DNA of 64,000 nt from the NCBI GenBank assembly GCA_046563655.1, contig CM102286.1, positions 3,410,001 to 3,474,000 of the forward strand, given 5' to 3'. Positions within the stretch are counted from its first letter, which is position 1. Each line of letters begins with the position of its first letter. The position numbers were made by a program, and so were the translations under genes. Under the pieces are notes generated by a model. That model saw only the letters and a list, made by a program, of their open reading frames with translations, ran no database searches and had not been told where the DNA came from. This stretch comes from Yuukianura sp. NJ FZ-2021 (Eukaryota). Positions 32,394 through 44,217 of the stretch are shown piece by piece.

Positions 32394-34088
32394 ATGTGCG
32401 CAGCGCTTGCACTTGCAAAAAGCTTCCGTCAAAAGCCACAAAAGCTTGGGAAGCTGAAAATGTCTGATAATTCGACATTTGAGTTTGGAAGCTGCGAAGG
32501 TGAACTTTTATTTGACTTGGCAAGTTGGACTGGTTATGCGGCTCTCGATACAGGTGCACTACTGGAAGTAGTATGCGAAAACATAAAAATTCGTATCCAT
32601 AAAGGCTTGGGAAGCTATGAGGGAATAGAAATCAAGCCATATACTATCCCAATTGTCATGAACTGGAACTTGCTGCCGCGACAGGATATTTCCTTAAATC
32701 ACTTACAACTTTGTCAAAATAAGATTAACAAATGGGCTGCGGAATTAAATATCACGTCAGGCTCGTCATACTACAACAAACTACAAGAAGCCGACGTACC
32801 CCTCTTCTGTGCCACAACGGTGCCTGGTATCTCTCTGAAGGAAATGTCAGTGTTTGTACTTCAACTGCTTATTCAACTTGTTCTTGGTAATGTTCATACT
32901 AAATAATATTGTACAACATGCAAAAAACTACCGCAAACGAAACTATATACAAATTAAAACATCTAAGCCAATTTCGTTCAAAAATTTGCTTGGTAAAAGT
33001 AATACCGGTGTCATTCTTTGCTCGATCAATCTTGCAGTAATTTCTGCGCCAGAGCTCCTATTTACTAGGTGTTTTTTTTTTCATAAAGTTTAGAAAACTT
33101 ACACGTTATCCTGTTTATTTGTTCTCGTTCTACGACGAATTGCAGTAACACGTTAGCAGTACAAGGTGTTACTCAACCCAACCTAACCAACTTGACCCTA
33201 CTATTCCGTATTTTTTCAAATAATTTAACCACATGTTTTCCCTAGTGTTCAACACTAAAATTGACGTAAACAACATATTCCGTATAATACTGCTTTTTAA
33301 TTTGCCTTTTATTTATAGACGACACTATGGACAACAACAATGATTTCAAAAGTGAGGACATACCGATACATATCGCCACCTCTGTTGTAAACTACTTCTG
33401 CGAAATATTAAGAGGCCAGCAGAAAGAACCGTACTTGGACCTAGATTTTCCAAACTCTTTAGGAATGTGCCGTCTTATTGCAAAACTTCGCAAGAAACTA
33501 ACAGCATACGGAATCAACAACTGTCTGGACTATTTTATTGCATTTGAGGATTATATGAATGCAGTATTACTGGAGAGTCGATTTCGAAATCCATCATCAA
33601 GTGATGATGGATTCTTCTCTGATTTATACCTTCCAATTAGGGAACATTCCTTGGGCGTCAACTGTGTCATTGAGCTGCATGCAGTAATGAAAGGTATATC
33701 GATTTCACAAAGAGTACGAAGAGATCCAGCTTTGGCTTTGTTTAACAGACAAGTTGCGAGGGAGATTACCCTTGTAAATGACATACTGTCTTACACGAAG
33801 GAAGAAGCTTGTAATGAAAAATCGAACTTTATATCTATATACTGCAATAACAAATCGATTCACGAGACCTTTGACGAGGCTTTTAAAATGGCCACACGCT
33901 GCATTTGCAACGCATGTATACTTGAGAAATATTTACTTACAAAGTACCCGCATGAGCTTCCCTTAAAAAGCTATTTGAGCATTGGTTTATTGAGCATTGA
34001 CACCGGCCTGCAGTATTCATTACAAACCCAGCGTTATGGAGCTTTCGAGTTTGAGGCAGTAGCCGACGTAAGAAATCACTGTAGTTGA
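32394..34088 (+). CDS. Microbial-type class I terpene synthase TPS-A, 2 exons, 420 aa (398 aa from the ATG at 32460)
   Basis: Exons 32394-32886 and 33319-34088. Splicing creates LDDTMD (DDxxD). Also R-x-x-S-L-G (effector triad), NDILSYTKE (NSE/DTE), EKSN and QRY. Confidence 0.9.
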
Positions 34089-35793
34089 TCAAGGTAGTGG
34101 ATTTGCGTTAACGCATTAGAAAAAACACGGCATTGGAGTAGATCTTTAGAAAGAATCAAACTAGTAGATCAAAGTAGTAATCAAGTAGATCAAAGAATCT
34201 TTTAAATCAGATCTTTCTTTCAAAATTTCTTTTTAAAATTGAAGTTAATGTAAAATCTATTCTTTACTAAATTGTTGAAATTATAGTTATGTAAAAAAAA
34301 CTGTACAGTTAAATTAGTCCTCACATACGGACTCTCTCACACTGGTGAAGCACCTACAAGTTCAATATTCAAACAGCTAGATTTCCTGTGATAAAGCATA
34401 CATTTGAATGCTCAATGGCCGAAGCTTCTCAGGCAAACCGTGTTGGTTTTAAATTGTTGAATTACAACAACAATTTAGGCAGCAAATATTTCCTGTGAAT
34501 GAACTACGAACCTCTTGATCTTGACCCTCACATTTCAAACTAATTTTGACAACGTTCTTCATAGGCGTTCAAAATCAAATATAGCAGTTATGTTTCCGAT
34601 TTGATAACTGTGTTAACACTTCATAGTATTGTAACAAGGCCAAAATATATAATCAATAAATGTTGACCCGGAAATTCTTATTGTACTAAACTAACATTTT
34701 GTGAATCGATGATTACTGCTTAGCTACTAATAAAAAATTAATTGTTTTGCTGAGTTTTTTAAAATTAAGATGTTGTATTGCAAAACGACAGTGAGCTGAA
34801 ATCCTCGACCGCATACTTACGAGATAATTTGTTGACACTCAAAGTCAGATACAAAAACACTTACCAGCCAAAAAGTTTCTCTTTTTTTCCGAATAAAATG
34901 ATCGCGATGTAGTCCTAACAACCTTAACGAGAGACGCCACATCATTGAAACGCCATTAAAAGTGAGTTTTGTAGATGTTGCAACGACTGGGAATTGAGAG
35001 TTCACACGTTACGTAATCACGCAACATGCCGACGGGGTCTTCATGATTTAAATTGTGTGACTTATGCTAACGTTCCAATCAATGCGTGTCCATATTCCCG
35101 CATACTCTAACTGGTACTATAAACTGAATCTTTTAAGAAAAGATGAGAAATATTTCAAATACTAACAATATTCCGTTAATACCATAATGACCAGGCATGC
35201 CAAAAAAAAAACTGAGAGTTGGGGAGACTTGATAGTTGAGTCTCACCCAATTTGCCTGACTCTTTTAGAAAAACTCGCGCGAATGATCACAAAATTTGGC
35301 TTTTTATAATTCAAAGCAGTCAGTCCATTTCTTTGTTCCTTCACTGTCGTGTCAGTTAGTTCTTAGTCATTATCAGAAATACCAAAAATCAAAAATATTT
35401 AGGCCTTAAAAATTTGTTAGGCCCGTTCTTATTGGTAAGAGCAGACAAAGGGCAACGCAATTCGCTTATGGGCAAGAGCAGACCCGTACGATTTGCCTAC
35501 AATTTAACCAGTTGTTCTCGAGGTCCATAGGAACAACTTTTGTACAGGGCCTACATGGGGCATTGAACGGTTTGACCTCCAGGGGTCACCAACAGTCAAG
35601 GGGTCATCGTATGACAACCCCCCACAAATAAGGTATCGTTGGAAAAGTCTTGACCTCATGGTTCAGAAAATGCATGGGTATCAATACTTTGGTTCAGGCG
35701 TTTAGCCGTAAGGGATCACTGAAGGTCAAATATGAAAAAAGTTGCAAAGTACCAAAAAGTGAAAATCGTTACATGACAACCGACAAAATGAGT

Positions 35794-35927
35794 TACAGAA
35801 GCCGCTCTAATATACAAACTAAAAACCTCATCCTTTTCTCCACTCCTTCTCACGGGCCTCGCACAAAACTGAAAGGAGTGGAGAAAAGGATGAGGTTTTT
35901 AGTTTGTATATTAGAGCGGCTTCTGTA
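35794..35927. mobile_element. Tiny TA-flanked hairpin element (mini-MITE)
   Basis: About 55-bp perfect inverted arms CAGAAGCCGCTCTAATATACAAACTAAAAACCTCATCCTTTTCTCCACTCCTT around a short loop, with TA on both sides. Confidence 0.75.
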
Positions 35928-42012: not shown

Positions 42013-42854
42013 TACAACTAGTCGCAAATGGCATGCTTGAATAAATTTTCAGAATGATATCAGTAGTAAATTTTCAGGAATACTCATCTTATGAATTTCA
42101 TGACAAATTATTCAAATGAGTAATCGAATATTTGTTGTAAATCAGCCAAATCGTACGGGTCTGCTCTGTCCCATAAGCGAACTACGGCAGCCTTTTAAAA
42201 ACTGCAGTTTTAATGAAATTGAAAACCGCGTAAGGTGCATGTTTCATTGTTTCAGTTGTGGGTAACATTCCTACAATACTACGTGTTTGCTTATTGCTTT
42301 ATGTTTTCCGTACTTAGAGTAACGAGTTTTTCGTTTATAGGCCAAAGTCATAAATGTAAACAATCTGTTAAATATGTTCAACTCATTGTCTGTCGTGAAA
42401 GTTAACAGCAAGGACTAAACAACTTCCTTGTTTAAAATTTGTTAATTTTGAATTGTAGTCTCTAGCTTGAATAAAAAAACGTTTATATCCGGAATAACTT
42501 GGCAAAAATTTATTAGGACTTTATATTTAAAAAAATTTAAATGCTGTTTCTACCGTTTGTTTTGCAACGTAAAAAAATATACTACATTATTCTTGCACTG
42601 TCCAATCTAAAAATGACAAACAATAGCAAACATTATTTTTACGCCTTCCTTCTGAACAATGGGAAAAGAAAGTTTTAACATTAGATAAAAATAAATTAAA
42701 ATTTGATTTTGTTCTACTTTTACTTCAATTCAAAAATAAAACACTTCCAAGGAAGTTTTTGCAAAGATTCTTTAATTTACAGTGGAGCAAAGGCGATTGC
42801 AATTGCAAAGACTGTAATTCGCCGCGGCATCAGATTTTGACAAGAAATTAAGGA

Positions 42855-44217
42855 ATGGAAACTCCCACGTACGAGAGATTGACATATTTTGGAAAATTTC
42901 TAACTATAAAAACTTTGGAATCTGGAGAACAGGAAGAAGTCGTTCCGGATGAAAACCTACAACTGGACATAGGAAGTTATCGTGTCTACAACATTAATAC
43001 GGGACTTGTAGATGAAGAGCTGACAAATTCTTACAAAAAGATTGAAATTCTGTTCAATCGTGGTGAAGTCGTTTTTGAGTCTGGGTGTGAACCGATATCA
43101 ATCGCTGGATTTTTTCCAGTTGTCATGGACTGGCGAACTTATCCACCAGTAGACTTGGGAATTGCAAATATTGATGCTGCTCAAAAGATTATGAACGGCT
43201 GGCTTCTGGAAATGGGGAAAGCGGAAGGATCTCCATACTGGAAAAAGTTGCATCACACATGCGTTCCAATGTTGACTGCTTTCTTCAGCCCGGGAGTTCT
43301 TTTGGCTGATCAATTTACCAACACGGTTCTAATGTTCTTGTTTGTCATCCTAGGTAACAACAAATGCCAAATTTTTTACATAACACTTTTTATTTTTTTA
43401 AACTATTTTCACAGTTTAAGATTGATACGTTTTGGTGCGTTTTCTAGATGATATTTTTGACAACTACAAGGATTTTTGGAGCAAAGGAATACCGACATTG
43501 GAAATGGTTCAAGCCGTTGACGCTTTCTGTTCAATTTGTCGTGGTGAAGGCATCGATGAAGACACGATTAAAAACACGAACTTCCCGCAATTCCAAATCA
43601 TTTGCAGACTTTTCGGAGAATACCGCGAGTCTCTCGTACCCTATGGTTTTGACAAATGTGAACAGTTCATAAACTGGACAGTTGACTGTCTTGAATGCAA
43701 CGCTTGGGAAACTCTTGGATGGGTTGTGGGTGGTGACGATCCGCGACAACAAGAGCGGTTTTATTACTTTCGGAGGGAATCCACCTACGGATGGCTTCCA
43801 TTTCACGAGTGGACAGCAGTTTGCAGGAACATTTCAGTTTCCGATAGAATTCGCCGGGATCCACTCTTTGACTTGTGTCGCAGACGATGGGTCAGAGCTT
43901 CACTTACGATTAATGATATGTTCTCTGTCCAAAAGGAAATTATGAACGGGGAGGAGTCAAATATTCTACTGATTCGAACCAAGAGAATGTCAGCCACGAG
44001 GTCATTCCAGTATGTTTTGGATGAATTGAGAATGTATTCTGAAGAAATGGGAATTCTACAGCGGAAGCTTGAAAGGAAATACAGAAACTCTCCACTTTTG
44101 TCGGATTTGAGGGTTTACTTGGACCTCGGAAGAGCCATTTTTGACACTAACAATCAATTTACTTTGCTTTCGGAAAGATATGGGAGGAAACCATTTACGG
44201 CAAAACTATATGTATAA
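42855..44217 (+). CDS. Microbial-type class I terpene synthase TPS-B, 2 exons, 422 aa
   Basis: Exons 42855-43353 and 43448-44217. Splicing creates LDDIFD. Also RRESTYG, NDMFSVQKE, EESN and ERY. The phase-1 intron is at the same position as in TPS-A. Confidence 0.92.

Follow-up and report, generated by a model that had tools for sequence, protein, structure and literature searches.

How does an arthropod come to carry terpene synthases (TPSs) of a type that is typical of microbes, and what form do the genes for such enzymes take in its genome? This question is raised by a stretch of 64,000 nucleotides, the whole of which was analysed and is called the window below (positions 3,410,001 to 3,474,000 of contig CM102286.1 in assembly GCA_046563655.1, deposited as Yuukianura sp. 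NJ FZ-2021). Within it a first-pass annotation, made from the letters alone, had pointed to two terpene synthase genes, here called A and B, and had read them as an ancient horizontal acquisition followed by intron gain and divergence. We find that each gene consists of two exons separated by a single intron, and that this intron lies in the first aspartate codon of the DDxxD motif in both of them and in two environmental relatives. Taking the evidence together, we hold it to be very likely that A and B are nuclear two-exon springtail genes for class I terpene synthases, which would go back to an old acquisition with subsequent intron gain and duplication.

Springtails make unusual terpenes, and the enzymes responsible for them were recognised only in 2024-2026. 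Passages of one study (PMC11665903) report that canonical TPSs occur in Sciaridae, among springtails in two of three and among acariform mites in 12 of 15, and describe enzymes from Folsomia and Allacma that are active in vitro. Passages of a second (PMC13638087) describe 277 TPS genes across 21 of 26 springtail genomes, introns being present in 55% of these genes and numbering at most ten in any one; these passages name the motifs DDxxD, sensor Arg, NSE and RY, report four active enzymes and place the springtail genes in a distinct clade of unresolved origin. The occurrence of microbial-type TPSs in springtails is thus already in print, and the novelty that the first-pass annotation implied does not hold, canonical TPSs of springtails, mites and sciarids having all been described in the passages just cited; A and B add divergent members to the springtail family and leave the general published picture unchanged. 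As far as those passages go, A and B resemble FcTPS2/5 and AfTPS2 (PMC11665903) and ScTC1-5 (PMC13638087) in being springtail genes for class I enzymes with a single alpha domain and the same motifs. Like the published genes, of which about half have introns (PMC13638087), they belong to a multi-copy family and are interrupted by an intron. The canonical TPSs of Acariformes and sciarids are likewise reported to be arthropod-encoded, intron-bearing, of microbial type and thought to derive from horizontal gene transfer (PMC11665903), but they form a clade separate from the springtail genes (PMC11665903, PMC13638087).

Family, motifs and predicted fold

The genes were called from stop-to-stop frames and the raw sequence, and their exons were joined by coordinates in a script (Table 1). 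The spliced products measure 420 aa (A) and 422 aa (B) and have zero internal stops, and the coordinates confirm the earlier statement that both second exons are 770 nt long. Both second exons also match the Pfam family PF19086 (Terpene_syn_C_2), by which the first-pass annotation had proposed to check them, above its gathering cut-off of 23.7 bits (A, 55.8 bits, E 6.8e-15; B, 26.0 bits, E 9.4e-06). The two proteins are 29% identical to each other over 386 aa (E 1e-44), with the intron position, the length of exon 2 and all motifs kept.

Examination of the sequences revealed the complete set of class I motifs in each protein. In A the Asp-rich motif reads DDTMD (residue 165) and the NSE triad NDILSYTKE (residue 318), while in B they read DDIFD (residue 167) and NDMFSVQKE (residue 322); an RY pair follows at residue 403 (A) or 410 (B). 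The N, D, S and E of the NSE triad and the RY pair are invariant across a seven-row alignment of relatives. In this family the pyrophosphate-sensor Arg sits about 46 residues before the NSE triad; in both A and B it lies exactly 46 residues upstream of the N of that triad.

With a profile made from seven second-exon sequences, matches at E <= 0.001 were obtained to 58 distinct PDB entries' sequences, every one named as a terpene synthase or cyclase, with presilphiperfolan-8-beta-ol synthase as the best match (E 2e-14); a phmmer comparison of exon 2 of gene B with pentalenene synthase gave E 0.012. An AlphaFold model of the exon-2 part of A (255 aa) has ten helices, with a mean predicted local distance difference test (pLDDT) of 77.6 and a predicted template-modelling score (pTM) of 0.77. 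All the chains listed by Foldseek for this model are class I terpene synthases (query TM-score, TMq, 0.64-0.75; 13-21% identity), and the best of those listed are BcBOT2, T-muurolol synthase, pentalenene synthase and a diterpene synthase from Streptomyces; aristolochene synthase is matched as well. A and B share the fold (as modelled for exon 2 of A), the motif set and the 46-residue spacing from Arg to NSE with bacterial and fungal cyclases such as BcBOT2 (8H6Q), pentalenene synthase (1PS1), T-muurolol synthase (9HQD) and epi-isozizaene synthase, but differ from them in the low identity of 13-21% (measured for A), in an N-terminal part of 160 residues without a Pfam model and in a eukaryotic gene structure.

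Could A and B instead derive from isoprenyl diphosphate synthases (IDSs), as insect TPSs usually do according to passages of PMC11665903? Nothing specific to the two genes favours this beyond that precedent, which includes the enzymes of termites, beetles and bugs; these share with A and B the Mg2+-dependent ionisation of a prenyl diphosphate, in our case an expectation by analogy, but belong to another family. No polyprenyl synthase family was matched at E <= 1 by any of the four exon translations in the Pfam search, and none of the 58 PDB matches is a prenyl diphosphate synthase by name. A single DDxxD is accompanied by NSE and RY. This origin is therefore refuted, and we regard its probability as negligible; the grouping with trans-IDSs or farnesyl diphosphate synthases, which the first-pass annotation had named as the outcome that would overturn its view, did not appear. 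Its assignment of both genes to the microbial DDxxD + NSE + RY type, by contrast, stands: A and B are predicted to be alpha-domain terpene synthases of class I, without IDS descent.

Catalytic activity, substrate and product, like the donor considered below, we infer. By the mechanism that is standard for class I terpene synthases, the single intron would be removed from the transcript to give a protein of 420-422 aa, which would bind a prenyl diphosphate through a trinuclear Mg2+ cluster, the candidates being geranyl, farnesyl, geranylgeranyl and geranylfarnesyl diphosphate (GPP, FPP, GGPP and GFPP). DDxxD, together with the NSE triad, would hold the cluster, the sensor Arg and the RY pair would help to ionise the diphosphate, and the resulting carbocation would be cyclised or quenched to a terpene.

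An intron in the first aspartate codon

The intron of A opens with GTAATG after the G at 32886 and closes with TTTATTTATAG, the exon resuming at 33319, and that of B opens with GTAACA after the G at 43353 and closes with TTTTCTAG, the exon resuming at 43448. Both genes thus have a phase-1 GT-AG intron inside the first Asp codon of DDxxD, and this part of the first-pass annotation is upheld by the sequence itself, by the colinear junctions and by the two metagenome loci described below. With the intron retained, the exon-1 frame hits a stop at codon 171 in A and at codon 199 in B, upstream of any DDxxD. The introns have a lower G+C content than the coding parts (0.32 vs 0.41 in A; 0.26 vs 0.42 in B), the three frames of intron A hold 9, 5 and 10 stops, and poly(A) signals (ATTAAA/AATAAA) lie 2-134 nt downstream of the stop of gene B.

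One claim of the first-pass annotation has to be given up, namely that DDxxD comes into being only through splicing and escapes searches at the level of open reading frames (ORFs). The G that ends the intron, as the last letter of its AG, forms GAC or GAT again with the AC or AT that follows it in the genomic exon-2 frame, and the unspliced ORFs at 33288-34088 and 43426-44217 already contain IDDTMD and LDDIFD. Because the end of the intron recreates the Asp codon, DDxxD does not depend on splicing and the genes are visible to ORF-level searches, as the Pfam matches of both second exons illustrate.

We tested the splice model in a 12-row alignment that sets spliced A and B beside two spliced metagenome relatives and eight full-length homologues whose genes are intronless. 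Relative to the intronless proteins, neither A nor B shows a gap or an insert where its exons join; exon 1 of both genes aligns to the N-terminal part of these homologues, and the hydrophobic helix that closes exon 1 abuts DDxxD just as it does in the uninterrupted proteins. The two metagenome relatives come from loci (L001 and L002) that a metagenome scan with alignment A2 recovered; they are 54% and 43% identical to gene B. Both display the same layout, in which exon 1 ends in G and is followed by GTAA, a pyrimidine tract with AG and then AT-GAC, in phase 1. All four genes with DNA at hand (A, B, L001 and L002) therefore carry a G|GT...AG|AT/AC intron in the same codon and phase, with lengths of 432 nt (A), 94 nt (B), and 54 and 67 nt (L001 and L002). 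Both metagenome loci fall in the clade of B in the tree described below, and for the clade of A the shared intron is that of gene A only.

That A and B have this intron in common at 29% identity is in keeping with an acquisition that is old and that preceded intron gain and divergence. To this extent the sequence of events proposed by the first-pass annotation agrees with the data; its first step, the horizontal origin, we would keep as a proposal. The phase-1 intron would have been gained before the clades of A and B split, and the family would then have diversified by duplication; the copy at the window's beginning would be one that decayed.

An intron at the DDxxD codon is absent from those main-text passages of PMC11665903 and PMC13638087 that contain 'intron' or 'DDxxD', and figures in their supplements may show it; among the papers listed by literature searches, no title or abstract states an intron in or near the DDxxD of animal TPSs. 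That deep paralogues and two environmental relatives have this intron position in common is possibly new. If the intron were general in the family, it would set a minimum age for the acquisition, serve as a cheap marker for distinguishing host genes from microbial contaminants when soil metagenomes are analysed, and provide a character for testing one acquisition against several.

Contigs from the four runs listed for gene A, all of them DNA runs and belonging to two studies, were used to check coverage, a comparison that shows that intron-bearing DNA exists. One Logan contig of the probable source run matches 32000-35495 without any difference. A second, independent DNA study yields contigs over part of intron A and over exon 2 of A with 1-3 differences each, placing gene A at about 99% identity. 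Within intron A the contig over 32952-33221, which comes from an independent run, differs in 1 letter and has 1 gap; across intron B the corresponding contig covers 43328-43560 with 17 other letters and 3 gaps, and may represent an allele or a paralogue. Other contigs overlie gene B at 80-95% likeness, from which it appears that related copies or alleles of this gene exist. The summed contig depth of gene B is about ten times that of gene A, a measure that is not a copy number.

Relatives and the question of the donor

We searched 1.84 billion representative proteins with the second exon of A by HMMER and recovered 39 matches at E <= 0.001, the best of them 38% identical. The four best are short metagenome ORFs of about the size of the second exon (223-264 aa). 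Names were looked up for 30 of the 39; none of these is a mite or sciarid name, and four carry the name of an organism: a 'terpene synthase' of Folsomia candida (OXA38645.1), which at 28% identity is the one named springtail sequence that the search reached, a synthase of Pseudomonas kitaguniensis and two ascomycete synthases. Other than the F. candida protein and the intron-bearing metagenome genes, the 39 matches are single open frames, and the intronless bacterial-type homologues are 24-29% identical to the second exon of A. A word-based homologue search with that exon gave no match, and with profile A1 it gave P0008 alone.

Several full-length intronless matches resemble a gene on a 150-kb contig of a metagenome-assembled genome (MAG) labelled Parachlamydiaceae, a taxonomic label that rests on this one MAG. 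In the part inspected (386-6949 of locus L003) a 377-aa terpene synthase gene (2965-4098) lies directly after a diphosphomevalonate decarboxylase-like frame, and the neighbours recognised in the translations are a GHMP-type kinase, an isopentenyl diphosphate (IPP) isomerase, a diphosphomevalonate decarboxylase and a mevalonate kinase. The gene would thus sit in a mevalonate operon, as judged from frames that were named by eye and not by family search. A sample of 301 genomes from the phylum of this MAG contains eight with a match, which is strong in the source genome only; the other seven give 19-27% identity at E 2e-13 to 1.6e-4. The bacterial-type TPSs, to which this gene belongs, are colinear with A and B over their full length, including the exon-1 part; unlike A and B they are intronless and, in the locus at hand, set in a putative operon.

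A tree of 45 rows was computed with IQ-TREE from all HMMER matches except the fragments P0037 and P0039, with multi-domain rows cut to single domains. Three of the matches have unusual architectures. OXA38645.1 (563 aa) has its C-terminal half present twice (191-396 and 386-549), probably because gene models were fused or a tandem duplication took place; P0013 has two whole synthase domains; and P0010, which is 755 aa long and bears the name undecaprenyl diphosphate synthase in its source, has the synthase domain in its first 400 residues. The tree is unrooted, built from the matches of one query and has several long branches. It contains bacterial, fungal and F. candida rows, and so provides in part the phylogeny that the first-pass annotation had called for, but rows from mites, sciarids, corals, sponges and amoebae are missing from it.

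In this tree A and B form one clade with the intron-bearing or exon-sized metagenome genes (94/95), which joins the F. candida synthase, the Pseudomonas synthase and P0019 (92/89). An adjoining clade of 20 rows (98/97) includes the Parachlamydiaceae gene, and a branch with 96/86 sets the fungal and actinobacterial rows apart from the side of A and B, a split that the intronless bacterial-type TPSs share with the A/B clade. A sister relationship of the A/B clade to the two sampled ascomycete synthases, a group chosen after the tree had been viewed, was rejected by the approximately unbiased test (p-AU 6.6e-05). The nearest non-animal relatives found are, as far as their sequences tell, intronless bacterial enzymes, a point that is possibly new; Chlamydiae are not mentioned in the main text of PMC11665903 or PMC13638087. 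We regard a bacterial donor as a lead, not a result.

These relatives also bear on whether the genes could instead descend vertically from an ancient eukaryotic or arthropod TPS that was lost in most lineages, in which case the intron could be old too. Passages of PMC13638087 leave open a single acquisition in an arthropod ancestor with later losses, and an unrooted tree that is without mite, coral, sponge or amoeba rows gives this scenario room. Against it, once F. candida and the intron-bearing metagenome genes are set aside, each remaining relative is a single open frame, one of them in the putative bacterial mevalonate operon on the 150-kb Parachlamydiaceae contig and one a Pseudomonas protein. 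Among arthropods, moreover, passages of PMC11665903 report a patchy spread, with 14 of 76 species outside the insects and 5 of 361 within them. We consider such vertical descent distinctly improbable. On the favoured reading, that of an acquisition, the family would have reached the springtail lineage at an early date, a bacterium being the simplest source, and the bacterial relatives supply a concrete donor hypothesis.

A bolder version of this, which we put forward tentatively and think unlikely in its full form, is that the first-Asp intron represents a single ancient gain marking a deep springtail TPS lineage that descended from an intronless bacterial enzyme of the Parachlamydiaceae type. 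If the descent were true, it would name a donor group, that of an intracellular bacterium, for a springtail family whose origin passages of PMC13638087 give as unresolved; if the single gain were true, it would provide a simple genomic marker for dating the transfer.

Genomic setting in the probable springtail host

The neighbours of A and B within the window are animal genes (Table 1), in line with the arthropod neighbours that the first-pass annotation had invoked, and one of them allows these to be narrowed to springtails. The ten best matches of a 274-residue copine exon are all from Collembola (Orchesella dallaii, O. cincta, Folsomia candida and Allacma fusca), at 45-62% identity with nine at 53-62%; the 11th is a whitefly protein at 47%. 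The G+C content of the synthase genes (0.41-0.42) and their G+C at third codon positions (GC3, 0.41-0.42) fall within the ranges of the neighbouring genes (0.34-0.44 and 0.32-0.47). A and B are most likely encoded in a collembolan nuclear genome.

Table 1. Features of the 64,000-nucleotide window, in window coordinates
Feature	Positions	Strand	Remarks
B-like third terpene synthase copy	14-252	+	3' end only, cut by window edge
Cytochrome P450 gene	20604-22244	+	two exon ORFs, Pfam p450 E 8e-17 and 5e-43; located between gene A and the third synthase copy
Terpene synthase gene A, exon 1	32394-32886	+	164 codons + G of first Asp codon; first ATG in open frame 32370-32906
Gene A, intron	32887-33318	+	432 nt, GT..AG, phase 1, 3' end pyrimidine-rich
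Gene A, exon 2	33319-34088	+	770 nt, TGA stop; DDTMD, pyrophosphate-sensor Arg, NSE (NDILSYTKE), RY
Cys-loop receptor exon	37805-38056		inside the repeat-rich stretch between A and B
Terpene synthase gene B, exon 1	42855-43353	+	ATG at 42855; 166 codons + G of first Asp codon
Gene B, intron	43354-43447	+	94 nt, GT..AG, phase 1
Gene B, exon 2	43448-44217	+	770 nt, TAA stop; DDIFD, sensor Arg, NSE (NDMFSVQKE), RY
ELO elongase gene	46842-47754
Copine genes, two	51413-52905 and 61670-63036	-	~10 kb apart, exon ORFs nearly identical
Fungalysin M36 metalloprotease gene with FTP propeptide	58866-61288	+	spread over several ORFs
GDSL lipase gene			also among the window neighbours of A and B

This setting bears on the question of contamination or chimeric assembly, that is, of genes from a fungus or protist in the sample. 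Such a source would suit a family typical of microbes, and the nearest Atlas clusters are mostly ascomycete. It is, however, opposed by the position of both genes among animal genes in one 64-kb stretch, by a G+C and GC3 that match those of the neighbours, by the contigs from two DNA studies (identical over 32000-35495 in the probable source run, about 99% over gene A in the second study) and by the rejection, for a group named post hoc, of the sister relation to the sampled ascomycete synthases. Because of the animal neighbours, the matching composition and the contig coverage, microbial contamination appears very unlikely, and the argument made against it in the first-pass annotation is borne out.

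A further B-like copy lies at the very start of the window. It matches exon 2 of gene B at 74% identity over 248 nt with 9 gaps in blastn, and a tblastn match covers 77-250. The homologous peptide pieces are in two frames, with at least 2 frame changes. Since the homologous pieces lie in differing frames, this copy is probably a pseudogene. Its presence, together with the contigs at 80-95% likeness that imply related copies or alleles of gene B, raises the possibility that A and B, for all their intact appearance, are relics themselves: pseudogenes of an expanded family that decay or are not expressed. Such a reading has to contend with spliced frames that are open over 420 and 422 codons, with four intact catalytic motifs at the canonical 46-residue spacing from Arg to NSE, with canonical splice sites and their pyrimidine tracts, and with the retention of motifs and length at 29% identity, which would need long purifying selection. 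We think it improbable; A and B are, on the sequence evidence, real, intact genes of a known kind.

Several points nevertheless weigh against reading A and B as springtail genes for active synthases of common, old origin. Exon 2 of gene B barely passes the PF19086 cut-off, although this marginal score is offset by the 29% identity to A at E 1e-44, and exon 1 of either gene taken alone matches no Pfam family. The single named springtail row of the tree, F. candida OXA38645.1 with its 28% identity, has a branch length of 2.86 and lies in an unresolved group; forcing it together with the A/B clade was not rejected (p-AU 0.44), which makes A and B candidate members of the published springtail clade. 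The assignment to springtails comes from the match list of one neighbouring gene, that for copine. The splicing of A and B in vivo and their expression we infer from DNA. Finally, the putative decay of the third copy indicates that not every member of the family is functional.

The decayed copy, the P450 gene and the two intact synthase genes lie within about 44 kb of each other and could constitute a terpenoid gene neighbourhood in an animal; their occurrence as neighbours is possibly new. The stretch between A and B (35336-42424) is mostly high-copy repeat with many joints and inverted pieces, and the summed contig depth there reaches up to about a thousand times that of gene A. The near-identity of the two copine genes suggests a recent duplication, which may take in the genes between them. 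The fungalysin M36 gene is possibly another foreign-type gene in this animal genome. On the reverse strand at 5890-14688 a unit of three ORFs recurs at intervals of about 1.8 kb and contains inner repeats, 145 and 286 nt long; among its repeated ORFs, one resembles 45021-45341, the middle exon-like ORF of a membrane-protein gene that adjoins B. The latter belongs to a pair of paralogous genes for multi-pass membrane proteins (24330-26761 on the reverse and 44497-46083 on the forward strand), for which no Pfam family was matched; the Atlas clusters closest to them (score 0.96-0.97) are of uncharacterised proteins from arthropods, and a weak lead (0.87) points to the 7tm_7 gustatory receptors.

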